From Chloroflexota bacterium (GTDB lineage: Bacteria; Chloroflexota; Dehalococcoidia; UBA2979), in contig VXMU01000118.1 in the NCBI GenBank assembly GCA_009840945.1, positions 2,454 to 66,453 on the forward strand: 64,000 bases of DNA. The letters are read 5' to 3'. This document shows, piece by piece, positions 19,694-62,682 of the stretch; position 1 is the stretch's first letter, and the number at the start of each line of letters is the position of its first letter. Under the pieces are notes generated by a model. That model had not been told where the DNA came from. It was given only the letters and a program-made list of their open reading frames with translations, and made no database searches. The translations under genes and the position numbers were made by a program.

Positions 19694-22024
19694 CTACTCG
19701 TCGGCGCCCCCCGCGGACGCGGGGGGATCGGGGCTCCTGACCAGCAGCTGCGTCAGTGGCGCGACGCCCTCGGCGAACAACGTCCCGAACGCCCGGTTCA
19801 CGATCGCGGGGGCGTCGAGGAGATACGGGACGTACCGGCCGTCCAGCCGGGCGTAGAGCGCCGTGATGCCGAGGCCTCGAGCGCAGGCCTTGAGGTCGGC
19901 GACCGTCCCGCCCTCGTACGCAACGAGGCTGAAGCCGGGGGAGATGTCGCCGAGGATGCAGGCGCCGTCCGGCTTCGCGGCGGGCGGCGGGCCGCCGAAG
20001 ACCCGGTCGGGCAGCTCGTCCCCGATCGGGGTGTTGCGGCGGATCACGTCCGCGAGGGTCGTCGAGCGGAGCTCGAAGAGCAGTCCGAGGTTCGCGACGA
20101 AGTACGGGTCGCGCTCGTACCAGTAGCGGTCGCCGTCACGGAGTCGCCGGAACTGCTCGACGAGGATCGCGTGGAACGTCTCGCCCACCAGCGCCCCCGG
20201 CAGGTGGTCCTCGGCGAGTCCACCCACCCAGAGGTCGAGGTACCCGATCTCGCCGTAGGCCGACCGCAGCGCGGCCTCCATCTCGGGGTCCGAGGACACG
20301 TCCCCGAAGTCCTGGACCGGCGGCAGTCCGTAGGCCATGCGCGTGGTGTTGTAGTCGGCCAGCCCATGGTCCCTCGTGCGCTGGATGTTCAGCGCGGCCA
20401 GGTCACGCACCGGACCGCCCGGCGCGCCGAAGAGCATGTTGCGGACCTCGTCGATGAGCAGTGGGTCGATCTCCTGCGCCTGCTGGATGGCGAGGCCGCG
20501 GAGGAACCCCTCGATGCCCTCGGCTTCGACCAGCTCGGGGTTGAAGAAGGACGCCGCCAGCGAGAACGCCTGCGTGCGCCCGGACGCGTCGATGTGCATC
20601 AGGCTGGGCGAGAGCATCGTGTGTCCGAAGCGGTACGCCGCCGTCGAGAACTCGTTCGAGATGGAGGGATCGACGCGCGGGTCGTAGCCCTCGTACGGCC
20701 CGAGGGCGCCCGGGCCGAGCAGCAGGGGCAGGAACTCGTTGTAGGTGATCGCCTGCATGAGCGCGCCGACGATCTTGCGGGCCAGCTCGAAGATCTCCTG
20801 GCCCATGAGCGACGGGTTCTCCGCGGCGATGATCGCGGCCAGGCGGTTGTGCTCCCGGACGAAGAGGGCGTGCATCGAGGTGAGCCCGACGTGCTCGTTG
20901 GCCCGGATGTCCCCCGCGAGGAAGAGCGCCGTGGTCCGGCCCCGGTTGCCGTCGTCGTTCGGCAGGAAGTCGTCGTTGTAGCGGAGCAGCCGCCCGTCGT
21001 GGGATGTCCTCAGCCTGCCCGTGCCGTCGTTGGTGCGGAGGGCGCGCGTGCGGCCGGGGTCCGAGCCGTAGACGTTGGAGGCGTCGATGAACGCGGTGAT
21101 CGTGTTGATCGGCGTCCGGGGACTGTCCGGTGTGACGCCGGTGGACGGGTCGAACGCGGAGCGACTGAACGGCATCGTGATGCCGCTGATGAATCGGTTA
21201 AACGCGGGGTCGCGCTGCGGGATGGGGATCGGGAGCGATTCCTGCTCCGCCGCCGGGGTCAGGCTGAGGTCGTGGTCCAGGAACTGGCCCCACTGCCACA
21301 CCATGTCCGTCACCCCGTAGGCGTTCGGCATCGACCCGTCCTGGGCCGAGACGAGATTGCTGACCTCGCGCGGGCCCGGCAGGTCGGGGGGCGGAGATCC
21401 GGTCAGGCCGTACAGCGCGGCGACGTCCGCCTTTCGGAGCAGCGTCGCGCCGGGCACGCCCAGCTCCGGGCGGTCGCGGTTGTTGCCCCAGCCGTCGACG
21501 GATCGCGCCTCGAACGCCTTCGGGAAGGCGCAGAGCACCACGGGCACCGTGAGGCCGGCGCGCCACTCGAGGTCGGCCTCGGTCCAGGCGAACAGGCGGC
21601 CGCCGCCCCGGGCGTCGGCGAGGTTGAGCCACACATCCCCGAGGCCCAGCGTGAGGCCCTCGACGCCGTCGTCGAGCGCCGGCGAGAACTCGACGAGCAC
21701 GCGCCAGGTCCCGGCCGCGTCGCGGGAGCGGTTCTGGATGATGTTCGTGACGGTGTAGGTACCGCCACGCCACGCGAACGTGTTGCCGGTGAGGCGGCCG
21801 AAGTCGCGCTCCGGGAGCGTGCTGTAGCCGCCGAGGCCACGGTTGATCCCGACCCGCATGCTCGCCGGCAGCAGCTCGCGGCCGCTCGCCTCCAGCGACA
21901 GCTCGGCCGGCCCGAGCTCGGCGTGGGAGGCCCGCGGGGAGGCGAGCAGGGCGAGGACCACCGCCAGGCCGACGAGCGACGCTGTCAGGGGGGTGCGGCG
22001 CCTGCTTCGAGTGCCGCGGCTCAC
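19694..22024 (-). CDS. Secreted animal-type heme peroxidase family protein with unassigned N- and C-terminal domains
   Basis: 776 aa. It has an Arg-rich signal peptide (MSRGTRSRRRTPLTASLVGLAVVLALLA), the distal-His motif WQWGQFLDHDLSLTP, the proximal-His motif TAAYRFGHTML and RTRDHGLADYN. Confidence 0.9.
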   Translation of the reverse strand: MSRGTRSRRRTPLTASLVGLAVVLALLASPRASHAELGPAELSLEASGRELLPASMRVGINRGLGGYSTLPERDFGRLTGNTFAWRGGTYTVTNIIQNRSRDAAGTWRVLVEFSPALDDGVEGLTLGLGDVWLNLADARGGGRLFAWTEADLEWRAGLTVPVVLCAFPKAFEARSVDGWGNNRDRPELGVPGATLLRKADVAALYGLTGSPPPDLPGPREVSNLVSAQDGSMPNAYGVTDMVWQWGQFLDHDLSLTPAAEQESLPIPIPQRDPAFNRFISGITMPFSRSAFDPSTGVTPDSPRTPINTITAFIDASNVYGSDPGRTRALRTNDGTGRLRTSHDGRLLRYNDDFLPNDDGNRGRTTALFLAGDIRANEHVGLTSMHALFVREHNRLAAIIAAENPSLMGQEIFELARKIVGALMQAITYNEFLPLLLGPGALGPYEGYDPRVDPSISNEFSTAAYRFGHTMLSPSLMHIDASGRTQAFSLAASFFNPELVEAEGIEGFLRGLAIQQAQEIDPLLIDEVRNMLFGAPGGPVRDLAALNIQRTRDHGLADYNTTRMAYGLPPVQDFGDVSSDPEMEAALRSAYGEIGYLDLWVGGLAEDHLPGALVGETFHAILVEQFRRLRDGDRYWYERDPYFVANLGLLFELRSTTLADVIRRNTPIGDELPDRVFGGPPPAAKPDGACILGDISPGFSLVAYEGGTVADLKACARGLGITALYARLDGRYVPYLLDAPAIVNRAFGTLFAEGVAPLTQLLVRSPDPPASAGGADE

Positions 22025-36410: not shown

Positions 36411-36411
36411 C
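36406..36411. repeat. Left copy of the 6-bp target-site duplication GCTAGC
   Basis: Identical hexamer at 37449-37454, immediately outside the inverted repeats. Confidence 0.85.
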
Positions 36412-37387
36412 TGTACTGACTACAGAGGTGTGAGACACGGCTGACGGGCGGGAGGCCGCCGAGCGAGCCGTGGGGACGGCGTCTGTTGTACCACCTCAGC
36501 CACCCGGCGAGGGCGCGCGTGCGGTGCGCGCTCGTCGGGTAGGCGAAGGCGTATGCCCAGCTGCGCAGCAGCATCTGGATGAAGCGCTCCGCCTTGCCGT
36601 TGGTGCGCGGCGTGTAGGGCCGGGTGCGGAGGTGGCGCAGCCCCCGCTCGGCGCAGCCCTCACGCCAGGCGTGCGAAGCGTACGCGGGCCCGTTGTCCGT
36701 CATCACCGCCTCGACGCTGACGCCCTGCTCGCCGAACCACTGCAGCGCGCGCTCGAGGAAGGCCAGGGCGTCGCCGCGGCGGTCCGTCGGCAGCACCTCG
36801 GCGTAGGCCAGCCGGGAGTGGTCGTCGACGGCGACGTGGACGTGCTGCCAGCCGGCGTAGGGGCTGCGGGTTACTCCGTCGCGGAGGATGCGCTTGCCGA
36901 CGTTGAAGAAGCGCCCCAGTTTCTTGGTGTCGATATGCAGCAGCTCACCCGGGCGCTCACGCTCGTAGCGCACCACGGGCGGCCTGGGCTCGCGCGGCAG
37001 CCGTGAGCGGCCCAGCCGCCGCAGCACCTTCCCGATGGTCGAGGCTGGACGGCCGAGCAGGGCGCCGAGCGTGAGCGGACCTGCGCCACTGCGCTCGCGC
37101 GCCACCACGATCTCGGCCTCCTCGGCGGGGGTGAGTCGGCGCGGCTGGCGCTTCGGCGTCGAGGGGCGTTCGCGCAGCCCTGCCCAGCCGCCTGTGCGGT
37201 AACGCCTGAGCCAGCGGTAGCCCGTGGCGCGACTGGCGCCCACGCTGCTGGCGGCCTCGGCCGGGCTCATGCCGCCGAGCGTGGCATCCACGGCGCGGCA
37301 GCGTGTCTCGTAGGAGTAGCGCATCCGCTTGGGGCGACTGGTGGCATCATGCATCGGGACCTCCTTCGGAGCTTGGAGCTTGTTCAA
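36407..37387 (-). CDS. IS481-family DDE transposase
   Basis: 326-aa ORF with an N-terminal HTH region and DDE residues in HIDTKKLGRF, TDNGPAY and NGKAERF, then RYNRRRPHGSLGG. The likely start is ATG at 37354 (MHDATS...). Confidence 0.92.
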   Translation of the reverse strand: MNKLQAPKEVPMHDATSRPKRMRYSYETRCRAVDATLGGMSPAEAASSVGASRATGYRWLRRYRTGGWAGLRERPSTPKRQPRRLTPAEEAEIVVARERSGAGPLTLGALLGRPASTIGKVLRRLGRSRLPREPRPPVVRYERERPGELLHIDTKKLGRFFNVGKRILRDGVTRSPYAGWQHVHVAVDDHSRLAYAEVLPTDRRGDALAFLERALQWFGEQGVSVEAVMTDNGPAYASHAWREGCAERGLRHLRTRPYTPRTNGKAERFIQMLLRSWAYAFAYPTSAHRTRALAGWLRWYNRRRPHGSLGGLPPVSRVSHLCSQYS

Positions 37388-41100: not shown

Positions 41101-44100
41101 TGACCGCGCCGACGGCCAGGTCCTGCCGTACGAGCCGGTCGAGGGCGCGCACGCCCTGCTGGGGGGTCATCCACTCGGCGCCGGACGCCGCCAGCGTCGA
41201 CTCGATCCGTTCGCGGTGCTGCTCCGCCTCCCCGACGCCCAGCCACGCGCCCCACTGGACGGCCTGTCCGGGCAGGCCCAGCGCACGCCGGTGACGGGCG
41301 AGTTGGTCCAGGAACGCGTTCGCGGACGAGTAGTTGGCCTGGCCGGGGTTCCCCCGCACGCCCGACATGCTCGAGAAGAGGATGAAGAGGTCGAGGTCGA
41401 GCTGCTCGGTGGCGCGGTGCAGCTCCCAGGCGCCCAGCACCTTCGGCCACACGATCTCCTCGAAGCGCTCCCAGCTCTGGTTGATCAGCGCCGCATCGGA
41501 GAGCGCTCCGACGCTGTGGATCACGCCGCCGAGCGGCGGCAGCTGCTCATCGATCCGCGCGAGCATGTCCCGCAGCGCGCGGGCATCGGCGACGTCGGCG
41601 ATTTCGACCTGGACGGTCGCGCCCCGCTCGCGCAGCGAGCGGATCACGTCCTCGGCGGCCTCGTCGGGCGGTCGTCGCCCGTTGAGGACGATGACGCCCG
41701 CGCCGCGTTCGGCCAGCCAGCCCGCGACCGCGCCGCCGATGCCCCCGAGCCCGCCGGTCACGAGGTACGTACGGTCCTCGCGCAGCCGGCCCGTCGCGAT
41801 CGGCGAGGCCGTGAGGACCGCGACCTCGCCGCCGAGATCGGACATGGCGAAGTCCGCCGCGGCGGCTGCCTGGGCGACCGGCCATTGGCGCACGGGCGGC
41901 GCGTGAAGCTCGCCGGTGGCGAGGCGGGCGACCACGCTGCCGAGCGCGGCGCGCACCCGCGCCGGGTCGTCCTCGATGTAGTCCGCGAGGGAGGAACTCG
42001 CTTCCGCGTCGAGCTCGTCCAGGATGAGCGTGAGGGGAGCGGCGGCGAGGTCCGGCGCCCGCACGCCCGCGGGCGCGGGCACGGCCAGCGCCGACGGCAC
42101 CACGGCGGTCGGTCCGATCGCCTCGGAGGAGAGTCCCACGACGCGGTCATCGCCCCTGAAGCCTGTCACGTCGGGAGCAGCCTCGAGCACGCGGCCGCAC
42201 AGGACGCGGACGCCCTCGTCGGCTCCCGTGGCCTCGACGGCCACGCGGATCTCGCTGGCGGCGAGGGGGCGCTCCCCGGCGGGCTCCACTCGCAGGTCAC
42301 CATCCGGGTCGCGGGTGATGCGCCACTCGGCGTCCTCGGGCAGCGAGAGCTGTGGCGTGCCGTTGGCGCCTCGCACGAGCCTCGGCGCGCGGCGGTCGCC
42401 GGCGCGGTACGCGACCAGCGTCTCGCCGTCGGGGGCCAGCAGTTCGTCGATGAAGCCGTCGGGGAGCGCGTCCCCGTCCGGGTCGAGGTCGATCACCCTC
42501 GCGGGCAACCGCGCCAGCTCGCGCGTCACGACCTTGCCGAAGCCCCACAGCATTGCGCCGGCGAGCGCGCCGGTGTGCTCGTGATCGAGTACCTGCCCGC
42601 CCCGGCTGACGAACCAGACGCCGTGCTCGGGCTCCGCGTCGGCGTCGACCAGCCCCTGCACCAGCGCCAGCGCGCTGCCGGAGGCGTGCGTGACGTCCTG
42701 TCTCATCTCATCGGTCGTGGCGCCTGCCCCGTGGCCGTCGAGGGCGGCCAGATGCACCACGCCCCGCAGCGGAACGTCGTCGGGCAACGCCTCGACCATG
42801 GAACGCCATGATTCGCGCTGGTATGGGTCGACGAGGGCACCGGTTGGTCCGGGCCCGTCCGTCGGCGTGGCGCTCGCGATCACGACCGTCTGGTTGCGCG
42901 CCGCCAAATCGGCGGCGATGCGGTCTGCGACCCCGCCCCGGTCCGGCGAGAGGATCCACGCGCCGGGCGTATCGGCAGCGTCCCCGTCCGCCGCGTACGG
43001 GCGGTCGCGCCAGATCACCTCGTACATCAGGTCGTCGAGGGCGTCGACGGAGGAGAGGAGCGCGGCGCGCGTCGCCCGCTTCGCCGTGTAGCCGCTCACC
43101 CCGCCGATCGGCGCGCCGTCGCTGTCGTAGATCCAGATGTCGGCCTTGAGCACCTCGGGCGCGCCCGCCGGGGCAGCGGCCGCGCCTGCGTCGCGCATCT
43201 GCGCGCGGCACACCAGCCGCTCGGGGAGGGGGCCGTTGAGCCAGAGCCGCTCCCACCCGAACGGCATGTACGCCGCCGTGTCGTCCTCGCTCGCGCCGCG
43301 AGCGCCCGCCACCACCTGGAAGCAGGCGTCGAGGAGCAGGGGGTGGACATCGATGCCGCTACGGTCGACCTGACCCGGCAGGGAGATCTCGCCCAGCGCC
43401 TCGCCAGGCGACTGCCAGACGTCCGTCAGTCCGCGGAAGGCGGGGCCGAGGAAGACACCAGTGTTGCCGCGGGCGCGGTAGAGCGCGGACGCATCGCCGC
43501 GCGCCATCGCGGACTTGATGCTCGCTACGTCGATCGCCCCGGCGGCCGCGGCGGTCGCGGAGCCGGCCGAGACGCGACCGTCCACGTGCAGCGTCCACTC
43601 CGGGTCCGGCCCGCGACTGAACGCCTCGACGCGTCTCGCGCCGCTGCCGTTGCGGGGCGCGATGACGAGCTGCAGCCGCCGGCTCAGCTCACCATCGTCC
43701 GACTCCTCGGGGAACATGAGGGGGCTGTGCAGCTGCATGTCGTCGACGACGACCGCGTCCGACCCCTCGGCGAGTGCCGCCGAGGCAGCCATCGCCCCGT
43801 AGAGCGCGCCGGGCGCGACCACCCGTCCGAAGACGCGGTGGTCGGAGAGCCACGCCGGCTCGGACGGGTCGAGCTGGGTCTCGAACGAGACCTCGCCCGC
43901 CGGGGATTCGTGCCGCGTACCGAGCAGCGGGTGGCCGCTGTCCGCCCGGCGACGCTTGTGACCCTCGATCCAGTACCTGCTCAGCTGGAACGGATACCCG
44001 GGCACGCCCACGCGGCTCCGCCGCTCCCCCTGGTAGAGGCCCTCGAAGGCAACGTCGAGGCCGGCCTCGAACGCCTGGGCCACGGCCTCGGGGAAGCTCG

Positions 44101-49480: not shown

Positions 49481-50188
49481 CTACCGGTGCAACTCGTAGG
49501 CGACCGCCGCGGCGTACTCGTCATCGCCAAGATCTTCCACGTGCCAGCTTACTCCCGGCGAGTCGGGTAGCACGACAGTGCCGTCCGTACGACCTTCCCG
49601 CACCGCTCGGGGAATCTCAAAGGCGGTCGGTTCCAGCACCAGGCCGGCGCCGTGGGCCTTGAGCAGCGCCTCCTTCATGGTCCAGAGCCTGAAGAACAGG
49701 TGGAGTCGGGGGGCACCGTCGAGCGCGGCGAGCTCGGCGCGCTCCTCGGGTCCGAACGTGGCGTCGACCAGCAGGTCGAAGTTGCGGTGCTCGACGCGCT
49801 CCTCCACGTCCACGCCCACGCGACCCTCGGCCGCAAGTGCTATCAGGCCGTGCCGGCCGCCGTGGCTGACGTTGAAGCCAACGCGCACCGGCTCGCCCCG
49901 CAACCGGGCGAAGGGCTTCCCGTGTGGCGCGATTCCGAACGAGAGCTGGTCATTGCAGCAGCCGAGGTGGCTGGTGAGCAGGGCGCGCAGCGCGGCGCGG
50001 CACAGCGTGAACTGCCGGCGCGGGCCTGCGTAGGCAAACCCGCGCCGGCGGCGATGCTCGGCCTCGTCCAGCAACGCGAGCGCGGCCGACTCACGCGCCG
50101 AATCCTCGGCGAGGTCGACGTGGAATACGGTGACGCTACCCGATGTCTTCAGCGTCTCCCACCAGGCAGCGGGGACACCTGACGACAC
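49481..50188 (-). CDS. Sfp-type 4'-phosphopantetheinyl transferase
   Basis: 235 aa with FNVSHGG, VGVDVEER and WTMKEALLKAHG. Confidence 0.88.
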   Translation of the reverse strand: MSSGVPAAWWETLKTSGSVTVFHVDLAEDSARESAALALLDEAEHRRRRGFAYAGPRRQFTLCRAALRALLTSHLGCCNDQLSFGIAPHGKPFARLRGEPVRVGFNVSHGGRHGLIALAAEGRVGVDVEERVEHRNFDLLVDATFGPEERAELAALDGAPRLHLFFRLWTMKEALLKAHGAGLVLEPTAFEIPRAVREGRTDGTVVLPDSPGVSWHVEDLGDDEYAAAVAYELHR

Positions 50189-50646: not shown

Positions 50647-51447
50647 TCACAGGCCCTCGAACCGTGGCTCGCGGCGCTCCGCGAACGCGCGGAACCCCTC
50701 CCTGGTGTCGCGGCTGGCGAAGAGGCCAAGCTGCGCCGTCCACTCATACTCCAGGTAGTGGATCATCGTTAGTTCCGTCGAACGCTGTAAGAGTCTGCGC
50801 ATGGCCGTGTAGGCGAGCGGTGGGCCGCTCGCTATCTTCCGCGCATACGCCAGCGCCTCGTCCAGGAGCTGGTCGTCGGGCACGACACGGTTGGCCAGGC
50901 CCAGCTCCAGGCACCGTTCGGCGCTCACCGGGTCGCCGTCGTAGAGCAGTTCGTGAGCGCGACCCAGGCCGACGATCTGCTGGAGTCGGTAGGCGGCGCC
51001 GAAGTCAGACGCGAGACCGCGTTTGATGAAGATCGATCCCATCCTGGCCGTCTCTGCCATCAGCCGAACGTCGCAGCAGAGCGCGAGGCTGAAGCCACCT
51101 CCGGCCGCCATGCCGTTGACGGCCCCGATGACGGGCACGTCTGATTCCGAGAAGGCCACGGCCACCCGTGTCGACCAACCGCGGCGGTCGAGTCGCTCTT
51201 CACGGGTCCGCACGAACGTGGCGACGGTGAGTCGGCCGCTCTCGCCTATCTCGGCGCCCGCGCAGAACGCGTCCCCCGCCCCGGTGAGCACAAGGGCGTT
51301 GACGTCTTCGCGCTCGTTGGCCTCGGCAAGCGCCTCAACCAGGAGCTGCAGCATCTCCAGGTCCATGGTGTTCATGGCGTCCGGGCGGTTCAGGGTCACA
51401 AGCATGACGCCATCGTCCACGCTCGTGAGGACAGCAGGGTCGGACAT
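50647..51447 (-). CDS. Enoyl-CoA hydratase/isomerase (crotonase) family protein
   Basis: ATG 51447 (MSDPAVLTSVDDGVMLVTLNRPDAMN) with a GGGAG RBS. Oxyanion-hole motifs are LTGAGDAFCAGAEI and NGMAAGGGFSLAL. Confidence 0.88.
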   Translation of the reverse strand: MSDPAVLTSVDDGVMLVTLNRPDAMNTMDLEMLQLLVEALAEANEREDVNALVLTGAGDAFCAGAEIGESGRLTVATFVRTREERLDRRGWSTRVAVAFSESDVPVIGAVNGMAAGGGFSLALCCDVRLMAETARMGSIFIKRGLASDFGAAYRLQQIVGLGRAHELLYDGDPVSAERCLELGLANRVVPDDQLLDEALAYARKIASGPPLAYTAMRRLLQRSTELTMIHYLEYEWTAQLGLFASRDTREGFRAFAERREPRFEGL

Positions 51448-51647
51448 GCGCACTCCCAACTGCTGGTGCTGCGTGAGTGGACCAGACGTTAGCACGACTC
51501 CCACAGCGGTCGTCGTGGTGGGGTGCGATACTCCCGGCTCAAGCCATGCCCCGGGATGGCGCGGCGCGTCGAGCTCCGGGCGGCGGTCCAGACTCAGGCC
51601 GATCTACGCTGCGCGCAGGGCGAAGCGAGGATTCAGGAGCACGGGTC

Positions 51648-52751: not shown

Positions 52752-55700
52752 TCAGTTGCCGTCTGTACCGACCCCGGCTGGCTCGTCGCTGCGGACGACG
52801 AGCGGCGTGCCGGCGGGCACGCCCGCGGCGAAGAGCTCGCGGAATGACCGGTTCACGAAGTCGGGCGCGGCGAGGATGTTCGACACCCACGCGCCGCCGT
52901 GGAGGACGTAGATGGCCGTGACGCCGAGGCTTGCCGCGCAGGCATCGAGGTCCCCGACGCTGCCGCCCTCGTAGACCACGAGGCTGAAGCCCTCGGCCAC
53001 TTCGCCACGGAGGCAGGTCGCGAAGGGCTCGGTGACCTCGGGCGCGGGCAGGGCTGGCGTCGCCGGGCCGTCGCTGCGTACGACCAGCGGGGTGAGCGCC
53101 GGGACGCCGTCGGCGAAGAGGGCTCGGAAGGACGCGTTTACGAAGTCGGGCGCGGCGAGGATGTGCGAGACCCACGCGCCCTCGTGCAGCACGTAGAGCG
53201 CCGTGATGTGGCGGCCCTCCGCGCAAGCTACGAGGTCGTCGACGCTCCCGCCCTCGTAGGCCACGAGGCTGAAGCCGACGCTGACCGCGCCGCGCAGGCA
53301 GTCCGCAGGCGGCCCGACCTCACCCAGCGCCACGCGGTAGACGCGCTCGCGGCTGCCGTCCGCCGAGGTCACGGTGACCGCGATCTCATCGAGACCGGCG
53401 AGTGCGACCTGGTGGCCCTCGGCCGCCTCGTCGGCGTCGGCGGGCGTGACGGCCACCGTTGCGCCGTCCCGCACGGCCTCCGCGACGACCGTCGTCGAGG
53501 TGACGCCCGCATCCGCGACGCCTTCGTACTCCCTGCGTGCGGGGTCGAACGTGCCGATGTCGATGCCTTCGAGGGTGAGCGAGGCGAGGCGGGCGTCGAA
53601 GGCGTCCGGCATGTTGTAGCTGTAGACCCGGTCGTCGTTCTCGTCGGCGACGTACATCACCTCGCCCTCCGACCAGATCCCGCGCGGGCTGTTGTTGCCG
53701 ATGCGGCCCAGCTCCACGAAGTCCTCGTCGACGACGCGTTCGAGGGCGGGCGGCTCCTCGGGCGGGCCGTCGGTGGGCAGTGCGGGGAGGCGGTAGGCGT
53801 AGATGCGCTTGGGGTCGTGGTTGGAGACCCAGACCGTGACGCCGTCCGACCAGATGCCGTGCGGGCTCCCGTTCGCGTCGTGCAGTTCGTACTCGCCGAG
53901 GAACTCGCCGCTCGCGAGGTCGTAGGCGAAGAGCCCGTTCTTGCCGCCGTCGAGGACCCACATCACGCCGTCGCCGGCCCAGATGCCGCGCGCGTCGCGG
54001 TTGCGCCTCGTAAGCGCGATGTCGCGCTCCTCGACGCGCGCGCCGGTCGCGAGGCCGTAGGCGAAGAGCTGCTCCTGCCCGCTGTCGGAGACCCATGCCG
54101 TCGCGCCGTCCGACCAGATGCCGCGGGGCGCGCGGTTCGTCTCGTCGAGGGCGAACTCACGCTCCTCGACGCGCTCGGCGGTCGCGAGGTCGTAGGCGTA
54201 GACCCCGTCGTTCGCGCCGCTGCCGTTCTGGGCGACCCAGAGCACCGCGCCGTCGCCCCACAGCCCGGTCGGTTCGCCGTTGCCGGCCGCGAGGAGGTCG
54301 ATGTCGCGCGTGACGTTCCACTCGAAGTCGACGTCGCTCGGGGTGGGGCCCGAGGGGCCCCCGCCCGGCGCCCCGACGAAGAAGCCGCCGCCTCCGCCGA
54401 AGGAGGACCTGGCGACCCTGGCGACGGTGATGATGACGGTCACGGAGTCGTCGGTTACGCCGGACGGGTTGTAGCCGGAGTTGAACCCGTCGTGCACATC
54501 GACGGTGACGTTGTGGGTCTCCTGCACGTCCGGGTCCAGGACGGCCTTCGTCCGGATCTGACCCGTCTCCGGGTCGATCTCGAAGTTGTTGGCGTCGGGG
54601 CCGCTGAGCGAGTAGGTGAGGACGTCGTCCGGGTCGGGGTCGTCTGCCTTCACCGGTGGGCCGACGGACCGTCCGGCCTGCGTCCCCTGGCCGACCGAGC
54701 GTGGCACCTCGGCCTCGTCGAAGGCGGGGGCGGAGTTCGACGAGGGCCTGCTACTGCTCTCCCCGATCCGCGAGTCGAGTTCCGCCGACGCGGACTTGTT
54801 GCCGCCGCGGTTGTCGGAGTAGTCCACGCTCACCCGCAGGTAGCTGCCGACATCGTCGGCGACCGCGGTGTACGAGCTCGAGGTGGCGCCGGCGATGTCG
54901 TGCCAGCTCGAGCGGTTGCTGGACCGCGCCCACTGCCAGGCCTCGCCGGTCACGCCGTCGTCGCCGTCGCTGAGCTCGGCCTCGAACTGCGTCCCATTCC
55001 ACCCGCGCGGCGGCGAGAGGGTGACCACGCCCGCCTCCTCCACGTCCGTCACCGCCACGGTCACGTCGAGGCGTCCCTCGAGGCCGCCGGGGTCGGTCGC
55101 GGTCACGGTGACCGGGAAGCTCGTGTTGCCGTCCTCGTAGTCCGGTGGCGTCGCGAAGTAGAGCTGGCCGCGGTCGGAGATCCAGAAGTCGTTGCTGCTG
55201 ACCGACCACTCGAGGGTGTCGCGCTCGGGGTCGGCGGCCGTGTAGGTGGCGACCGCGGCGCTGCTGTTCTCGGCGATGGACGGCGAGGTGTCGCCGCTGA
55301 CCACCGGCGCCTCGTTCACGTTGGTCACCGAAATCGTCACGGTCCGGGTGGCGTCGACGGCGTCCATGTCGTCGTCGCCGTTCTGGTCGCGGCCGTCGGT
55401 GACCTGCACGGTGACGCGGTACGTCCGCTTGCCCTCGAAGTCCAGGGTCACGTCCTGCGCGAGCCGGATCTGCCCGGTGCCGTCGTCGATGGTGAACGAA
55501 GCGGCGTCCGTCCCGGTGAGCGAGTAGGCGAGGGGGTCGTTGACAGCCGAGTCGCCCGCGTTCAGGTCGGTCGCGGCCACCGGGTCGCCGATCGCGTCGC
55601 CGCCCTGCGCGTCCTCGGGCACGTCGCGCGTGCCGGTCTCCGTCGCCGGGAACGCCGGCGCCGAGTTGACCGGCGGCGGGTCGCCGACGCGCGACGAGAC

Positions 55701-58700
55701 CTCCGAGGCGGTCTTGTTGTCGCCGTGGCCGTCGTTGTAGGAGGCCGTGGCGCGGATGAAGTTGCCGGCGTCGACCAGCGTCGGGGTGTACCTGTCGCTC
55801 GTCGCTCCCACCAGGTTGACCCAGTCCGTGCGGCCGTTGGGCGAGCGGTGCCAGGCCCAGCTGATCGAGCCCGGGACCGGCTCGTCGTCGTCTTCGAGGA
55901 CGGCCGTCACCTCGACGCGGGCCTGGATGGTGGCGGTGAGGGTGGTGAGCGTGACGCTGCCGGGCTCGTCTTCGTTCCCGACGGTGATCGTCACGTCGAT
56001 CGAGTCGTCGATGGCGGCCGAGGTGTTGCCGAGGCCGTCCTTGCCGTCATGCACGTCGACCGTGACCTGGTAGCTGGACTTCGTCTCGAAGTCGAGCGGC
56101 TCCTGCACGCGCAGCTGGCCGGTGCCGGCGACGATGCTGAAGGACGCGGCGTCCGTCCCGCTCAGCAGGTAGGTGAGCCGGTCGTTCTCGGGGTCCTCGG
56201 CGGCTACGGGGTCGCCGATGCTCGTGCCGGCCGAGCTGTTCTCCGGCACGGTTCGCGCGCCGTCCTCGCCGGCGGGGAAGGTCGGCTGCTGGTTCTCGCC
56301 GAAGACGCGCAGCGAGGTGATCCCCTCGGCGCGCTTGCCGCTCCCGCGGTTATCCGTGTAGCCGACGGACGCGCGGAGGAAGAAGCCCGCGTCGGCCAGC
56401 ACCGTGGTGTAGCTGCTCGTGGTCGCGCTGGAGGTCGTGTTGGGGATGTTGGTCCAGCCCGTGCGGCCGTCGCGGGAGCGCGCCCACCGCCAGCTGCGGC
56501 CGCTGATGCTGCCGTCGCCGTCGGCGAGGGTGGCCTGCACCGTCACGCCGACCCCCGGCTCGGGCTCGGAGAGCGTGACCACGCCTTCCTCCTCCACGTC
56601 GAGGACGCGGACCCCGACGGTCGTCGAGGCGTCGACCACGCGCTCGGTCTCGACGGTGCCCTGGTCGTCCCTGCCGTCGCTCACGTTGACGGGCACGAGC
56701 AGCAGCCCCGTCGTGGTCTCGAAGTCCAGCGCCTGCACGGTCCGCAGCTGGCCGGTGGTCGGGTGGATCTCGAAGAGCGCGCCGTCGCCCCCCTCGCCGA
56801 TCGCGAACGTGAGCGGGTCGTTGTCGCGGTCGGTCGCCGTCACGCGGTCGCCGACGTCCACGCCGGCGTCCGTCTCCGGGATGTTCTGTGCGCTGCCCGT
56901 GCGGATGCGAGGCGGCGCGTTGGGGATCGGGTCGGGCGTGATCGCGGCGGTCGCTTCGCTCTCGGCCGACTTCCCCCCGCCCCGGCGGTCCGTGTACGGG
57001 TTCACGATGGCGCGGATCTCGAGGCTCGTCTCGTCCTCGTCCGCGACGTAGGTGTAGGAGCCGAGGCCGGTGTTCGAGTGGATCAGCTGCTGCCACGCGC
57101 CGCCCGACGTCCGCGTCTGGATGACCCAGGCGAACCCGCCCTCGCCGGGAACCTGGGTGAGCACGATGCCGCCGTCCGGGTCGGAGATCGTGAACGTGAC
57201 GCTCTCCCCGACGGCCGGGTTGAGGTTGCTGACGGAGATCGCGCCGTCCTCCTCCACGTCCTGCACGGTCAGCGTGACGTCGTGACGGACGGCGCGGCGG
57301 GTGGGCCCGCTCTGGCGGTCGGTCGCTACGACCGTGTACTGGTAGACGTTGTCGCCGTTCGCGTCGTCCGGGTCCTCGAAGTTGGGTGTCTCCCTGAAGA
57401 CGACGTTGCCGCCGAGGTCGATCTCGAAGTCGAGGCGGTCCGGACCCTCGAGCGACCAGTCGACGAAGCCCTCCTCGTCGCGCGCGGTGTACGAGACGAT
57501 GACCGGGAAGGCGTAGGGAGGCTCCTGGAAGTTCGCGTCCAGGGTTGCGTTGTGCTCGTCGAAGGAGAGGGTGACCGAGGGGCTCCCGGTGAACTCGGGC
57601 TGCTCGTTCACGTCGTCCACCTGGACCAGGAATTCGTCGCCGATCTCCCCGAGCTGCCCGACGTTCTCAGCCGTGTTGTCGGGCGGCGTGTTGGCGTCCC
57701 TGGCCAGGATGATCAGCTCGTAGACGTTGCTGGTGGAGCCCGAGCCGGTCGACTGCTCGAAGTCCGGTAGCTCGGCGAACCGCAGGACGCCCTGGCCGTC
57801 GGCGTTCTTGGTGATCGTGAAGTCGCTGGCGTCGGCGCCGGCGAGCTCCCACGTGATCACCTCGTTCTCCTCGTCGCGGGCGGTGAAGACGGCGACGTCG
57901 TCGATGTCGGCGAGGGCCACGCCCGCGTCGTACTCGATCTCGTTGTAGAGCGCGTTGGGCAGGTCTGTGATCTCCGGCGTCTCGTCGATGTTGGTGACGG
58001 TGACGGCGATCTGGTATGGCCTGATCCTCGATGTGACCCCGGGGGTGTCCCGCAGGCGCATGGTGACCTTGTAGACGTTGTCGCCCTCCGTTTGCCCCGA
58101 CTCGGGGGAGTCTGCGGGCATCTCGTAGTTGGGGCGGTTCTTGAACCGGAGGCGACCGAAGCGGTCGCCAATGGTGGTGACGCTCGAAGCCTCGAGGTCG
58201 CTGGTGTCCAGGCCTGCCAGCGTCTCGTAGAAGATGTCCTGGCCTTCCTCGTCGTGCCCCCGGTACTCGCCGATGAGGGAGTCCCACGAGGCGGCGTCGT
58301 AGGGGATCTCGGCGAAGGTGGGATTGAGGTCGCCCTGGATGAGGACGGGGATCTCGTTGAGGCCCGTCACCGTGACCGTGACCTCGAAGGTGCCGACGCT
58401 GTTGCTCTCGCCCTGCTGGTCGTCCGCCCGCACCTGGATGACGTACTCGTTGTTCCCGTCCATGTCGTCGGGTCGCTCGAAGTCCGGCCGCGCCGTCATC
58501 TCGTCCGTGACCGGGTGGGTGACCGCCGCGATGTCGAACGACAGCACGCCTGTCGAGGCGTTGATGCTGAAGTGCGCCGCGTCGTCGCCGGCCACCGACC
58601 AGCTCACCGTGTCGTTGTCGTCGTCATACGCGGTGAACGTCGCCACCTCGTAGTCCGAGGCCGGGATGTCGCCCGGGACCCGGGAGAAGTCGATCTCCTG

Positions 58701-60065
58701 GAAGCTCGGCGCCATGTCCCCGCTGACCACCGGCGTCTCGTTGAGGTCGTTGACCATGACCGCGACGATCTGGGTGTCCTCCAGCCGTGGGCTCGCGTTG
58801 TCCCTCACCCGCACCGTCAGGTCGTAGGTGTTGTTGCCGCCCGTGTCGTCCGGCATCTCGTAGTCCGGCGGGCTCTTGAACGTGAGCTCGGCCGTCCCGT
58901 TCACGTTCGAGGTGATGTTGAAGTCACCCGCGTCGTTGCCCGAGAGGTCCCACGACATCGTCCCGGTCGTCATGTCCGGGTCCGTCGCGATGTACGTCGC
59001 GACCACCCCCGTGGCGTTCTCGTCGAAGGAGACGGTCGCGGGGGCGGTGGTCAGCGTCGGCGTCTCGTTGACGTCCGTGACGGTCACGGCGAGGGACTTC
59101 GAGACGCTGAGGTGGTTCGACGCTCCCCGCGCGCCGTCGATGCCGTTGTCCGTGACCGTGACCGTGACGTTGTAGACCCCGTCGCCGCCGGCGTCCTGCC
59201 GGTCCTCGAAGTTCGGAGCGTTCTTGAAGGTGAGCACGCCGCTGGTCGAGCCGATCTCGAAGAAACCCCCGTCGTCGGCGCTCTCCACGGACCAGGTCAG
59301 CGTGTTGGCCGAGTCGTTGGTCTCGCCGTTGCTGTCCGGGTCGTCTGCGTCGTAGTCGAGGACCGAGGTCTGGTTCTCGGCGACGGAGATGGCGGTCTGG
59401 GTGGTCTCGATGGTGGGCTGCTCGTTCACGTCCGTGAGGCTGATGATCACCGAGATGGTGTCGTCGATGTTGGTGTTGGTGTTGCCGGCGGCGTCCTTGC
59501 TGTCCCGCACGCGCACCGTAACGCTGTAATTGACGGTGCCTTCATAGTTGTAGTTGATGCCGGACTTGGTCTTGATCTGGCCGGTGCCGGAATCGATGGT
59601 GAACGATGACTCGTTGCCGCCCGTCCCGAACGAGTAGGTGAGCGTGTCGTTGTCGTCGTCGCTGGCAGCCACGGCCGAGCCGACGTTCACATTCGCTCCG
59701 CTGTTCTCCGCCACCTCCCGCGTTGCCGGCGAGGTCTCGTCGAACTCCGGTTCGTTGTTGCCGGCGCTGATCTGGCCCGTCACAGCGTTGGCGCTCTTGC
59801 CCGACCCCTGGGGGTCCGTGTAGGACGCCGTGGCGCGCAGGAACCTGTTCACGTCCACGGCCACCGGTTCATAGGTATTGGATGTCGCCCCGCTGATGGG
59901 GGCGAAGGGCCCTGAGGCCGAGGCCCCCAGCGCCCACTGCCAGCTCACGCTGGTCGGAGTCCCGTCCAGATCAGTCACCGACGCCGTCAGCGTCTCGCCT
60001 CCCGATTCGGTGCCCGCGATCGTCACCGTGCCGGGCTCGTCGAGGTTGTTGAGGTTGATGATCAC
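52752..60065 (-). CDS. Giant cadherin-repeat surface protein, C-terminal 2437-aa reading frame (continues the upstream frame after a frameshift)
   Basis: The frame contains:
- Repeated cadherin-like units (..ENxxxGxxIGxPVxAxDxDxDxLTYSLxGxDAxxFxIDxxTGQI..YxVTVxVxDG..DDxIxVTIxV).
- W-x-W Ig-like modules.
- A 5-blade GIWSDG propeller.
- A cadherin-like beta-sandwich.
- Two copies of an unassigned C-terminal domain. Confidence 0.9.
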   Translation of the reverse strand: MIINLNNLDEPGTVTIAGTESGGETLTASVTDLDGTPTSVSWQWALGASASGPFAPISGATSNTYEPVAVDVNRFLRATASYTDPQGSGKSANAVTGQISAGNNEPEFDETSPATREVAENSGANVNVGSAVAASDDDNDTLTYSFGTGGNESSFTIDSGTGQIKTKSGINYNYEGTVNYSVTVRVRDSKDAAGNTNTNIDDTISVIISLTDVNEQPTIETTQTAISVAENQTSVLDYDADDPDSNGETNDSANTLTWSVESADDGGFFEIGSTSGVLTFKNAPNFEDRQDAGGDGVYNVTVTVTDNGIDGARGASNHLSVSKSLAVTVTDVNETPTLTTAPATVSFDENATGVVATYIATDPDMTTGTMSWDLSGNDAGDFNITSNVNGTAELTFKSPPDYEMPDDTGGNNTYDLTVRVRDNASPRLEDTQIVAVMVNDLNETPVVSGDMAPSFQEIDFSRVPGDIPASDYEVATFTAYDDDNDTVSWSVAGDDAAHFSINASTGVLSFDIAAVTHPVTDEMTARPDFERPDDMDGNNEYVIQVRADDQQGESNSVGTFEVTVTVTGLNEIPVLIQGDLNPTFAEIPYDAASWDSLIGEYRGHDEEGQDIFYETLAGLDTSDLEASSVTTIGDRFGRLRFKNRPNYEMPADSPESGQTEGDNVYKVTMRLRDTPGVTSRIRPYQIAVTVTNIDETPEITDLPNALYNEIEYDAGVALADIDDVAVFTARDEENEVITWELAGADASDFTITKNADGQGVLRFAELPDFEQSTGSGSTSNVYELIILARDANTPPDNTAENVGQLGEIGDEFLVQVDDVNEQPEFTGSPSVTLSFDEHNATLDANFQEPPYAFPVIVSYTARDEEGFVDWSLEGPDRLDFEIDLGGNVVFRETPNFEDPDDANGDNVYQYTVVATDRQSGPTRRAVRHDVTLTVQDVEEDGAISVSNLNPAVGESVTFTISDPDGGIVLTQVPGEGGFAWVIQTRTSGGAWQQLIHSNTGLGSYTYVADEDETSLEIRAIVNPYTDRRGGGKSAESEATAAITPDPIPNAPPRIRTGSAQNIPETDAGVDVGDRVTATDRDNDPLTFAIGEGGDGALFEIHPTTGQLRTVQALDFETTTGLLLVPVNVSDGRDDQGTVETERVVDASTTVGVRVLDVEEEGVVTLSEPEPGVGVTVQATLADGDGSISGRSWRWARSRDGRTGWTNIPNTTSSATTSSYTTVLADAGFFLRASVGYTDNRGSGKRAEGITSLRVFGENQQPTFPAGEDGARTVPENSSAGTSIGDPVAAEDPENDRLTYLLSGTDAASFSIVAGTGQLRVQEPLDFETKSSYQVTVDVHDGKDGLGNTSAAIDDSIDVTITVGNEDEPGSVTLTTLTATIQARVEVTAVLEDDDEPVPGSISWAWHRSPNGRTDWVNLVGATSDRYTPTLVDAGNFIRATASYNDGHGDNKTASEVSSRVGDPPPVNSAPAFPATETGTRDVPEDAQGGDAIGDPVAATDLNAGDSAVNDPLAYSLTGTDAASFTIDDGTGQIRLAQDVTLDFEGKRTYRVTVQVTDGRDQNGDDDMDAVDATRTVTISVTNVNEAPVVSGDTSPSIAENSSAAVATYTAADPERDTLEWSVSSNDFWISDRGQLYFATPPDYEDGNTSFPVTVTATDPGGLEGRLDVTVAVTDVEEAGVVTLSPPRGWNGTQFEAELSDGDDGVTGEAWQWARSSNRSSWHDIAGATSSSYTAVADDVGSYLRVSVDYSDNRGGNKSASAELDSRIGESSSRPSSNSAPAFDEAEVPRSVGQGTQAGRSVGPPVKADDPDPDDVLTYSLSGPDANNFEIDPETGQIRTKAVLDPDVQETHNVTVDVHDGFNSGYNPSGVTDDSVTVIITVARVARSSFGGGGGFFVGAPGGGPSGPTPSDVDFEWNVTRDIDLLAAGNGEPTGLWGDGAVLWVAQNGSGANDGVYAYDLATAERVEEREFALDETNRAPRGIWSDGATAWVSDSGQEQLFAYGLATGARVEERDIALTRRNRDARGIWAGDGVMWVLDGGKNGLFAYDLASGEFLGEYELHDANGSPHGIWSDGVTVWVSNHDPKRIYAYRLPALPTDGPPEEPPALERVVDEDFVELGRIGNNSPRGIWSEGEVMYVADENDDRVYSYNMPDAFDARLASLTLEGIDIGTFDPARREYEGVADAGVTSTTVVAEAVRDGATVAVTPADADEAAEGHQVALAGLDEIAVTVTSADGSRERVYRVALGEVGPPADCLRGAVSVGFSLVAYEGGSVDDLVACAEGRHITALYVLHEGAWVSHILAAPDFVNASFRALFADGVPALTPLVVRSDGPATPALPAPEVTEPFATCLRGEVAEGFSLVVYEGGSVGDLDACAASLGVTAIYVLHGGAWVSNILAAPDFVNRSFRELFAAGVPAGTPLVVRSDEPAGVGTDGN

Positions 60066-62424
60066 GGTGATGCTGTCGTCGATCGTCGTGTCGTTCTGGT
60101 TGGCGGCCGTTCTTGCCGTCGTGCACGCGCAAGGTGATGGAGAAGCCGGACTTGGTCTCGTAGTCGTAGGTCACGCCCGACTTCGTCGAGAACTGCCGGG
60201 TCGCGGCGCTAAACGTGAAGGACGAACTGTCGGCCCCGGCTACCGAGTAGATCAGCGTGTCACCATCGACGTCGGTGGCCGGCACGGGATCGCCGATGTT
60301 CACGCTGGCGCCCGTGTTCTCGTCGAGCATGAAGGTGACGCTCGACCCGTCGTCAAACGTCGGCGCGGTGTTGAGGATCTGGTTGGTGACCGCGTTCGCC
60401 ATCCGGTTGCCCTGGAGGGTGTCGCCGTAGACGACCGAGGCCCGCAGGTACATGCCGACGTCGGCGGGGACCACGGTGTAGGTCGCGGAGTTGGCGTTGG
60501 TGATGTCGTCGAACGAACCAGTCGCCGAGGCGCCCCGCGCCCACTGCCAGGTGATGGAGCCGATATTGCCGTCCGGGTCGGAGACGGTGGCCGTCAGTGT
60601 CGCCCCGACCGCGAGGTCGCCCGCGATGGTGACGGAGCCGGCTTCTTCGACGTTTGTGAGGCTGATGGTGACGTTGATGCTGTCGTCGACCGCCGTATCG
60701 ACGTTGCCGTTGGCGTCCTTGTTGTCGCGGACGTTGACGGTCACCGTGTAGGTCTTCTTGGTGCTCTCGAAGTCGTAGTCGATGCCGCTCTTGGCCTGGA
60801 TCTGGCCGCTGTTCGCGACGATCTGGAAGGACGAGGCGTCCGCGCCGCTCAGCGTGTAGGTGAGCGTGTCGCCGTCGTCGTCGCTGGCTGTGAAGGGCAT
60901 CCCGACGTTCGTGCCGGCGGCGCTGTTCTCGGACAGCGTTGGCATGGTTGACAGGCCACTGTCGAACGCGGGCTCGTTGTTCACGGTGTTGTTGGTCACC
61001 GACTCGTTGGACAGGGCGGCGGCGGCGTTGCCGGCCTCGTCCTGGACCGGCGTGGCGCCCATCCCGGTCGGGACGGTGTAGCTCACGGTGACCGTCTCCC
61101 CGGCGATGACCGTCGACGCCAGCGCCAGCGTCACCGCCATGCCGCTGATCGAGACGCTCGACGGCGCGGCCGACGTGCCCGCGACCGTCACGGAGTAGGC
61201 GCTGGCGAGGGGCGTCGAGGCAGAGTCGAGCGTCTCATCGTAGGTCAGGACCAGCGAGGTCTCGTTTACGGTCGCCGTGTCCAGCGTCGGCGCGGTGCTG
61301 TCGGTCGGGAGGATCGTGCCCTTGATCCGCATCTTGACGAAGAACCGGTTGTCCTCGGTCCAGGCGTCCGATGCGCTGGCCCTCCAGAAGATCGTGTCGC
61401 CGATCGACCATCCGGCTGCCCCGCCGCCGTCATCACCCGTTGTCGAAACCCGGTCGATGCTTCCATTGAGAGAGCCCCCGCTCCCGTTGTCGACGAACAC
61501 GGCGTACGTGGTGCCGGGGTCAAGCGTCGTGCCCTCGGCCGCCGTGAATGTCTTCGCCCCAGCGGTGCTGACGTCGTCGGGGTTCGTCAGCGTGGCGTGC
61601 ACCGCGTTCGGGGTTCCGTCGGTGTTCGTCGTGAAGATCCTGACGCGGACCGTCGTCGCCGAGCTTGTACCTACGAGCCTTATCTCCACGCTGTTGAGGC
61701 CGTAGCCCAGCGTGTTGCTGCCCGTCGTGAACGGCTGCGCCTGGGCCGTGTTTGTTTCGCTCGCATCCGTCTGACCCCAGTTCGCGACCAGCGTGACCTC
61801 GTTCCGCGGGACGGAGCGCAGTTGCGCGCCGCCGTCCTGCACGGCCGGCTCCGACCCCGCCTCGGGCGTGGGTTCGGGCGTGGGCTCGGACGTCGGCTCG
61901 GGGGTGGTGGCCTCGGGCAGCGTGATGTCAGTCCGGCCCGAGCGGGAGCCGAGGTCGTTCGAGCGGATCCGGTAGCGGTAGTGCTCCCCGCGGTTCACGT
62001 CCTCGTCGGTGTAGGTCAGCGTCGAGCCGTCGACGGTGGCGAGGAGAGCCATGCGCGCGCCCTCGACCTCCATCTCGCGGCGGTAGACGGCGTACTCGTC
62101 GGGCGTGCAGTCGGGCGAGGCCTCCCAGGTCAGCACGACCGCCGCGCCGTCCTCGCTGGGCGCGCTCGCCAGGTTGACCGGCGGCACGCTGCACGTCGCG
62201 TCGGCGCGGACGCCGGTGGTGCGCGCGAGCAGCACCGCCAGCAGCGCGACGAGCACGAACGCCAGCGCGAGCAGGCGGAACGCGCTTCGGCCACCGCGGG
62301 AGCCGCGGCCGGACCCTCGCGCGCCCCGCGTGCGCGGACCCCCCGCGATGAGCCGTGCGGCGAGCCGCAGGGGGAGCCTGAGGGCGCGGGACGGGAGGTC
62401 GTGCCAGGGCGGGTGGCGCTTCAT
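59971..62424 (-). CDS. Giant cadherin-repeat surface protein, N-terminal reading frame (signal anchor, FN3, SwmB-type Ig repeat, first cadherin units); frame breaks near 60102-60108
   Basis: The probable start is ATG 62424 (MKRHPPW...), followed by the hydrophobic anchor FRLLALAFVLVALLAVLLA. Next come an FN3-like segment (VVLTWEASPD...YAVYRRE...YRYRIRS) and a SwmB-type repeat (APTLDTATVNETSLVLTYDETLD...VTVSYTVP...VQDEAGNAA). The last ~35 codons before the stop at 59971 are out-of-frame junk. Confidence 0.85.
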   Translation of the reverse strand: MKRHPPWHDLPSRALRLPLRLAARLIAGGPRTRGARGSGRGSRGGRSAFRLLALAFVLVALLAVLLARTTGVRADATCSVPPVNLASAPSEDGAAVVLTWEASPDCTPDEYAVYRREMEVEGARMALLATVDGSTLTYTDEDVNRGEHYRYRIRSNDLGSRSGRTDITLPEATTPEPTSEPTPEPTPEAGSEPAVQDGGAQLRSVPRNEVTLVANWGQTDASETNTAQAQPFTTGSNTLGYGLNSVEIRLVGTSSATTVRVRIFTTNTDGTPNAVHATLTNPDDVSTAGAKTFTAAEGTTLDPGTTYAVFVDNGSGGSLNGSIDRVSTTGDDGGGAAGWSIGDTIFWRASASDAWTEDNRFFVKMRIKGTILPTDSTAPTLDTATVNETSLVLTYDETLDSASTPLASAYSVTVAGTSAAPSSVSISGMAVTLALASTVIAGETVTVSYTVPTGMGATPVQDEAGNAAAALSNESVTNNTVNNEPAFDSGLSTMPTLSENSAAGTNVGMPFTASDDDGDTLTYTLSGADASSFQIVANSGQIQAKSGIDYDFESTKKTYTVTVNVRDNKDANGNVDTAVDDSINVTISLTNVEEAGSVTIAGDLAVGATLTATVSDPDGNIGSITWQWARGASATGSFDDITNANSATYTVVPADVGMYLRASVVYGDTLQGNRMANAVTNQILNTAPTFDDGSSVTFMLDENTGASVNIGDPVPATDVDGDTLIYSVAGADSSSFTFSAATRQFSTKSGVTYDYETKSGFSITLRVHDGKNGRQPERHDDRRQHHRDHQPQQPRRARHGDDRGHRIGRRDADGVGD

Positions 62425-62682
62425 CCAGTCGTACACGGGGCACCACCCTCGGGAGATGCTCCGGCGGGACTGACGTTCGCCCGTGGCGGTCGGTTCGCCG
62501 CGATCAGCCAGCAGAGCCCGGGCGTTCTGTTGTCCAACGCGGAGCATCAATGCGGGCTCAAACGATAGACGACGGGACGCACGAGACTGTCAGAGATCTA
62601 TGAGATACGGCCCCAGAGGCGTAAAGTATCTGTTAGTATTTCGTGACGGCGTTCACCAATACCGAATGACAGGAGGGGAACG

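Follow-up and report, generated by a model that had tools for sequence, protein, structure and literature searches.

An undescribed tandem module at the C-terminus of giant secreted proteins of Chloroflexota

A 64,000-nucleotide stretch of the Chloroflexota bacterium assembly GCA_009840945.1 (contig VXMU01000118.1, positions 2,454 to 66,453; hereafter the window, in whose own numbering its features are given) carries on its minus strand an open reading frame (ORF; 52752..60065) for a giant protein of 2437 amino acids (aa), which ends with two modules of approximately 80 aa in its last 183 residues. The question raised by this locus is what a duplicated module without a named relative does at the very end of such a protein. 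The initial annotation, made from the letters of the window alone, had described the pair and suggested a sorting, anchoring or partner-binding role from its terminal position. By translation, the end of the ORF matched both copies described there exactly, and it is composed of the following parts.

53073..53303, minus strand: module copy 1, aa 2255-2331, with Cys2256 and Cys2281 (translation, tblastn, and hmmsearch with the family profile)
53019..53072, minus strand: Pro/Ala-rich linker between the copies, DGPATPALPAPEVTEPFA, 18 aa (translation)
52788..53018, minus strand: module copy 2, aa 2350-2426, with Cys2351 and Cys2376 (translation, tblastn, and family profile)
52752..52787, minus strand: hydrophilic 11-aa tail, DEPAGVGTDGN, and stop codon at 52752-52754 (translation)

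The module, its predicted fold and its family

The two copies are identical at 58 of 77 residues, and a tblastn search of the window with one copy found the other at E = 3e-33, so their likeness is not due to chance. Their DNA sequences share 78% identity overall and 66% at third codon positions, which indicates that the duplication is real but not recent. The closest relative of window copy 1 is copy 1 of another protein, P0089 (85% identity). No hydrophobic segment and no sortase-type motif is present in the tail behind copy 2.

Pfam-A gave no match in the last 190 residues of the giant protein, NCBIfam gave none to the module, and a profile of the three window copies (the pair and a single copy in a peroxidase gene, described below) matched no sequence in PDB. 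When 43 pairs were compared with Pfam at E <= 10, only short sub-threshold matches were obtained, and SLH was not among them. Two of these matches were considered and rejected, namely, DNA_photolyase (17 of 43 pairs; 13 bits at best versus a cut-off of 26.6 bits) and DUF7428 (7 of 43 pairs; 12 bits versus a cut-off of 27), each of which covered a short stretch. The members of the family are all named 'hypothetical protein' in their sources.

AlphaFold2 gave a confident model of the single module from a 26-sequence alignment (predicted local distance difference test score (pLDDT), 93.5; predicted TM-score (pTM), 0.83). DSSP assigned to this model the elements E13-19, H24-33, E36-43, E46-51, H56-65, and E74-80 (E, strand; H, helix), that is, a predicted alpha/beta domain of the order beta-alpha-beta-beta-alpha-beta. 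Foldseek found no neighbour of the module among 350,542 PDB chains (best E, 0.43; TM <= 0.45) or in BFVD (best E, 0.37), and no neighbour of the modelled pair in PDB. The order of the elements is that of ferredoxin-like and ACT-type domains, and no ferredoxin-like entry occurred among the Foldseek PDB matches. The module defines a domain family that has not been described before, and according to the model it may also represent a new small alpha/beta fold. The earlier statement that no named domain fits was thus borne out by Pfam-A, NCBIfam, and PDB sequences and by Foldseek against both structure sets.

A profile hidden Markov model (HMM) search and an AlphaFold model had been recommended in the initial annotation. 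The model is the confident one given above, which has no structural neighbour, and the search, run exhaustively over 1.84 billion representative proteins clustered at 50% identity, revealed a large family: 919 clusters passed E <= 1e-3, of which 362 also passed E <= 1e-10 and 172 passed E <= 1e-30. A first, word-indexed homology search had returned only 'stand-alone' proteins of 54-146 aa. Most of these short matches start at an internal GTG within the preceding copy or are pseudogene remnants beside transposases; remnants and decayed genes of the family therefore account for the misleading short proteins. We do not regard the module as chiefly a free-standing small protein, since most of the short matches were artefactual and the exhaustive search found large carriers. 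Among the remnants, an out-of-frame cadherin fragment is joined to 1.5 modules at L001:9826-10396 (plus strand), and a string of small fragments follows a 4044-aa gene beside transposases at L002:9190-10384 (plus strand), which shows frequent decay and recombination within the family. Transposases are also common beside module-bearing genes in other metagenome-assembled genomes (MAGs).

The genome scan took in one genome per GTDB species and confirmed 153 coding stretches, the best 80 of which, at 71 loci, were analysed. These 80 all lie in approximately 20 MAGs labelled Chloroflexi, Dehalococcoidia, Dehalococcoidaceae or Tepidiformaceae, and a single genome can hold many loci, with at least 13 on the MAG chromosome OZ244720.1. 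Because these best loci are all in Chloroflexota MAGs, the family looks confined to one Chloroflexota lineage known from MAGs only. In JGI metagenomes (241 million records), 8 loci were found, four of them on MKWU01 contigs. MKWU00000000 is cited in two sponge-metagenome papers (PMC5649159 and PMC5099237), one of which is an Aplysina aerophoba binning study, and the 'SB06xx_bin' MAG series is listed with sponge-associated (Entoporibacteria) MAGs (PMC7883664). An origin from marine sponges holds for the traceable members, to which the OZ and CBD long-read MAGs do not belong.

Architecture of the carriers and the terminal slot

Architecture was counted in the best 149 representatives. Two copies of the module were present in 139 of them, one in 5, three in 3, and five in 2; the linkers between copies measure 11-21 aa, and the tail behind the last copy mostly has 0-15 aa. 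Six-frame ORFs of the 71 genome loci, which reach more than 3,500 aa, displayed the same terminal pattern of two copies. The terminal position stressed in the initial annotation is therefore a trait of the family, with the module almost always at the extreme C-terminus in both sets. The tails are short, acidic, and rich in Gly and Pro, and a hydrophobic run of at least 8 residues was found in none of 92. A peculiar arrangement is seen at L022:1-14218 (plus strand, OZ244720.1), where four modules in the order copy 1-copy 2-copy 1-copy 2 are followed in turn by FN3 domains, a Cadherin-like domain, a further pair, and a tail that has a LysM-like segment; this ORF is probably a fusion of adjacent paralogues.

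The nearest module in another protein was a copy 1 for 89 of 92 first copies and a copy 2 for 85 of 92 second copies. This positional orthology indicates that the duplication is ancestral and that the pair has been inherited as a unit. An AlphaFold2 model of the window pair (pLDDT, 89.2; pTM, 0.81), in which pLDDT falls over the linker, suggests that the two modules pack against each other in a compact unit, and it looks as if the pair rather than the single module is the functional unit. Copy 1s of different proteins share a mean identity of 61%, with invariant Gly, Cys, and Phe residues, and two loops are invariant, namely, GG after strand 1 and GAPxFVN after strand 3. The pair also occurs by itself, in a 248-aa protein composed of a signal peptide and the pair alone (P0206).

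The two Cys residues of each module are separated by 24 residues. Over 185 modules, Cys was conserved at column 5 in 184 and at column 30 in 183, and in one module both were lost together; moreover, the four Cys residues of the pair are the only ones in the whole 2437-aa ORF. Because the residues are near-invariant and lost together, the carriers have signal peptides, and the giant ORF has no other Cys, we consider that each module probably has a single disulfide bond that fastens its N-terminal segment to helix 1. The disulfide suggested in the initial annotation accordingly gains support from paired conservation and loss, as judged from sequence. A divergent Cys-less module is found in P0188 (1223 aa) and P0193 (1363 aa), which share a repeat architecture with five dispersed copies, the last of which ends the protein ('...LLIIR*'). 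Pfam Kelch repeats occur at the N-terminus of P0193 only, and P0188 has no Pfam match. This subfamily is homologous to the main family (hhalign 99.3%, E 2.5e-20), and an extended search for it yielded no members beyond these two proteins.

In front of the pair, the giant gene contains the following features.

53313..53591, minus strand: Cadherin-like beta-sandwich PF12733, aa 2160-2245, directly upstream of the pair (Pfam E 2.6e-08)
53592..54341, minus strand: five propeller-like repeats, aa 1909-2158, starting from the motif 'PSDVDFEW' (family consensus)
54342..60065, minus strand: variable N-terminal part with arrays of cadherin and Ig-like domains (Pfam Cadherin E 8e-69, 8 stretches)
59971..62550, minus strand: upstream ORF in another frame, with a signal peptide or anchor, an SWM repeat, and cadherin domains

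The repeats, the sandwich, and the pair form a cassette (aa 1909-2437, window 52755-54341) whose order is given by the family consensus: a 'DFEW' motif, five 'PRGIWSDG..WV.D....Y.Y' repeats, the Cadherin-like sandwich, and then the pair, approximately 530 aa in all. It was retained in 67 of 67 two-module ORFs of at least 700 aa at the genome loci and in 89 of 97 protein representatives of at least 700 aa, and PF12733 was found in 34 of 45 carriers scanned. The repeats matched virginiamycin B lyase (PDB 2z2n) weakly (E 3.8e-05), a sequence match that points to a possible propeller-like structure.

ORF 52752..60065 starts just downstream of a one-base frame change in a 'ggccgcc' run at 60100-60110 (minus strand), and the frame-corrected cadherin sequence is continuous across the shift ('...VHDGKNG/AANQNDTTIDDSITVIINLNNLDEPG'). 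The upstream ORF is probably the true N-terminus of the same giant gene; the frame change, which could be an assembly error or a genuine pseudogenising mutation, looks as if it splits an apparent single gene of approximately 3,270 aa composed of signal peptide, SWM repeat, cadherins, cassette, and pair. Long ORFs also lie antisense to the giant gene (e.g. 52899-57770, plus strand, 1623 aa). We rejected these as genes and treated them as by-products typical of 70% G+C, which is approximately the composition of the window, because all domain matches fall in the minus-strand frame; the antisense ORFs were not themselves searched against domain libraries.

The N-terminal parts of the carriers are diverse and include Cadherin, fn3, Big_9, LRR, He_PIG, Spondin_N, Calx-beta, PKD, and RCC1 domains. 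Carriers without the cassette comprise LRR proteins, an S8 subtilase with a P-domain, RCC1 and FN3 arrays, and the peroxidase of the window. Signal peptides were found in this peroxidase and in the upstream ORF of the giant gene, and a crude heuristic detected them in 52 of the 99 representatives that are 600 aa or longer. The view that the carriers are secreted proteins was upheld in that those with intact N-termini have Sec-type signal peptides.

As the initial annotation had indicated, the window holds a third copy of the module, which proved to lie at the C-terminus of the peroxidase gene.

19694..22024, minus strand: secreted animal-type haem peroxidase, 776 aa, with a signal peptide and PF03098 at aa 174-676 (Pfam E 3.5e-147)
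19733..19960, minus strand: third, single module copy, with Cys689 and Cys714, at the C-terminus of the peroxidase (tblastn E 3e-23)

This copy is 54-58% identical to the copies of the giant protein, and the signal peptide of the enzyme is of the typical Sec type. The exact peroxidase sequence is also present in the Logan assembly of SRR9841446. For the role of the module, the most telling comparison was that of what occupies the C-terminal slot in 120 homologues of this enzyme. The 8 closest ones (60-96% identity) carry the module at the C-terminus, 7 as a single copy and 1 as two copies, and these closest homologues also carry signal peptides. In P0315 and P0316, which are 52-53% identical to the window enzyme and have the catalytic domain at the same coordinates, the end is formed by three SLH repeats (PF00395; 828-871 of 896 aa). 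Bacteroidota homologues end with Por_Secre_tail, the sorting domain of the type IX secretion system (T9SS), and other Chloroflexi homologues end with a Calx-beta-like domain and a different C-terminal module. This second module fills the last approximately 90 aa behind the Calx-beta-like domain in four peroxidases from Chloroflexi MAGs (P0224, P0233, P0267, and P0283), has the motif 'W.G.DG....VYRWDE...W..FFP...NTL..F..G..YWI....TW.V', and gave no Pfam match. It may be another lineage-specific module that fills the same slot.

Candidate roles of the pair

Within a large paralogous family whose other portions are adhesion-type repeats or exo-enzymes, the pair is the best conserved and least variable portion. 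Together with the signal peptides and the hydrophilic tails, this pattern is typical of modules for surface retention or sorting, such as SLH, CWB2, dockerin, and the T9SS sorting domain. Since a constant hydrophilic end is found on proteins with signal peptides and is replaced by other terminal domains in the peroxidase slot, we propose that the pair retains its carriers non-covalently on the bacterium's own envelope, a proposal for which we see an even balance of arguments. The N-terminal signal peptide would carry the protein across the membrane, and the C-terminal pair, often behind the propeller and Cadherin-like sandwich, would bind a conserved envelope component non-covalently; candidates for this component are proteins of the S-layer or envelope, glycans, and lipid head groups. 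The variable N-terminal part, be it a cadherin, FN3 or LRR array, an S8 protease or a haem peroxidase, would thereby be displayed on the surface. The GG and GAPxFVN loops are the likeliest sites of ligand contact. In wider terms, we infer that the module is a lineage-specific, disulfide-stapled module for surface retention or partner binding. By analogy, the sorting, anchoring or partner-binding role suggested in the initial annotation gains indirect support from the substitution in peroxidases, and it is kept here as a proposal.

The module would act most like the terminal attachment modules of the SLH, CWB2 or dockerin type, judging from shared architecture, and belongs to none of them. SLH is a helical motif of approximately 45-55 aa that is used in threes and binds a pyruvylated cell-wall polymer attached to peptidoglycan. 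Like our pair, SLH forms a tandem terminal unit on many unrelated secreted or surface proteins, which it attaches non-covalently to the envelope, and it stands as three repeats in P0315 and P0316 where the window peroxidase has the module. However, the module gives no SLH profile match and is a predicted alpha/beta domain of approximately 80 aa that contains a Cys pair and occurs as two copies or one. CWB2 (PF04122) of Clostridia consists of alpha/beta modules of approximately 90 aa that are arranged in tandem as one pseudo-symmetric unit and tether a large paralogous surface family. The module is likewise an alpha/beta tandem on a large paralogous family of surface proteins, but it matches CWB2 neither in sequence nor among the Foldseek PDB matches, occurs twice rather than three times, and has a Cys pair that CWB2 lacks. 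Dockerin type I (PF00404) is also an internally duplicated C-terminal module that attaches many secreted enzymes non-covalently; by contrast, our module has no Ca-binding EF-hand-like motif and no Pfam match, and no cohesin-like neighbour was found at the 71 loci. The T9SS sorting domain (PF18962, TIGR04183) resembles the module in its size of approximately 70-100 aa and in its position at the extreme C-terminus of diverse secreted proteins. This sorting domain of diderm Bacteroidota folds as an all-beta sandwich and is cut off in exchange for a lipid anchor, whereas the module is predicted to be alpha/beta, with two helices and four strands, is paired, and has no Pfam or NCBIfam match; a sorting machinery for it did not come to light either.

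A lineage-specific anchor could be connected with the envelope of these bacteria. Sponge-associated SAR202 (Dehalococcoidia) genomes have been described as devoid of peptidoglycan synthesis genes (Bayer et al., PMC6306507); if this is valid for the window lineage, anchors that depend on peptidoglycan could not be used there, and one would expect the lineage to have a solution of its own.

Several observations weigh against envelope retention by the pair. Clustering of 2,898 neighbouring ORFs at the 71 loci revealed no partner gene but only giant proteins and transposases. The pair is acidic (median isoelectric point, 4.3), whereas many binders of cell-wall polymers are basic. Modules stand internally in rare carriers, e.g. 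L022, and P0129 has an extra stretch of approximately 90 aa beyond the pair. The peroxidases mostly carry a single copy, and the pair is therefore not obligatory. In addition, substitution in the slot shows equivalence of position, not of function.

Other explanations were weighed against this proposal. The pair could instead serve in a dockerin-like assembly, binding a dedicated receptor, analogous to cohesin, on scaffold or giant proteins to build a surface complex. As with dockerins, the same kind of C-terminal module sits on a wide range of secreted enzymes and adhesins and is internally duplicated, and carriers often neighbour one another (three each in L037 and L068); however, no receptor family was detected among the neighbours at the 71 loci, and no sequence similarity to dockerin or cohesin was found. 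We consider such an assembly unlikely, and it overlaps with retention on the envelope.

Binding to the host rather than to the bacterium itself would make the pair a lectin-like or matrix-binding module for the sponge mesohyl, with its sulfated glycans and collagen. The traceable members come from sponge-derived metagenomes and MAGs, the two invariant strand-to-helix loops, GG and GAPxFVN, could form a site for a small ligand or an anion, and P0206 is a stand-alone secreted pair. Nevertheless, contact with the host would more readily be assigned to the variable cadherin, FN3, and LRR parts, and the pair is the most conserved part, always farthest from the N-terminus, across dozens of paralogues per genome; moreover, homologous peroxidases have in this slot either SLH, which anchors proteins to the cell's own envelope, or the T9SS sorting domain. 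A role in host binding is quite doubtful in our view.

It is improbable that the pair is a cleaved sorting or maturation signal like the C-terminal domain of T9SS substrates, read by a lineage-specific machinery for export, processing or attachment. The extreme C-terminal position with tails of 0-15 aa and the T9SS domain in the same slot of Bacteroidota peroxidases would suit such a signal. On the other hand, the carriers are already provided with Sec signal peptides, clustering of the neighbours at the 71 loci gave no conserved accessory gene, 170 aa of a well-folded tandem domain with probable disulfides would be large for a signal, and a terminal recognition signal would not readily explain the occasional internal copies and additional domains behind the pair.

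That the pair is a functionless passenger of a fast-recombining, partly pseudogenised gene family is scarcely credible, because, although fragments and truncated gene calls are frequent next to transposases and the window gene itself is frameshifted, conservation is strong (the mean identity and invariant Gly, Cys, and Phe residues given above for copy 1s), the positional orthology of the copies is held while the N-terminal parts vary freely, and the fold is predicted with confidence.

Two further ideas were examined and rejected. In a polymorphic toxin the arrangement would be the opposite; here the C-terminus is conserved and the N-terminus is variable, and no conserved immunity-like gene lies downstream. 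A membrane-anchor or sortase-type signal (LPXTG, PEP-CTERM, GlyGly-CTERM or PGF-CTERM) does not fit tails that are hydrophilic and free of hydrophobic runs in all 92 cases.

Genomic setting and significance

Between the two module-bearing genes, the window encodes a type I polyketide synthase of 2872 aa with the domain order KS-AT-DH-KR-ACP-KS-AT (38147-46765, minus strand). Near it lie a 4'-phosphopantetheinyl transferase, an enoyl-CoA hydratase, and alpha/beta hydrolases, with entries including 49481-50188 and 50647-51504 (both minus strand), and an IS481-type transposase with rve and HTH domains (36407-37387, minus strand) adjoins it.

Giant proteins rich in cadherin, FN3, and LRR domains are a genomic hallmark of sponge symbionts. 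The carriers of the module belong to these 'eukaryote-like' adhesins rich in cadherin and FN3: genes for cadherin and fibronectin-III domains are enriched in sponge MAGs, FN3 genes are particularly abundant in Chloroflexota, and few sponge-symbiont lineages encode classical secretion systems for such proteins (Robbins et al., PMC8163846). That description covers the N-terminal repeat domains and not the C-terminal unit, and targeted text searches of the literature returned no description of the shared C-terminal cassette or module.

The approximately 900 clusters (50% identity) without a family assignment fill a gap in the domain databases, and the conserved C-terminal unit provides a sequence signature for the surface proteome of uncultivated bacteria. 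The unit could also serve as an epitope or fusion tag to visualise the symbionts in tissue, and the ligand of the pair is a defined binding problem that can be approached with recombinant protein. Beyond this, we suggest tentatively, as something possible rather than probable, that the whole cassette of propeller, Cadherin-like sandwich, and pair may be the recognition element of a new surface-display system, with an anchor class of a new fold, possibly in symbionts without peptidoglycan. If this is true, the anchor would organise the whole repertoire of adhesins and exo-enzymes for life inside sponges.

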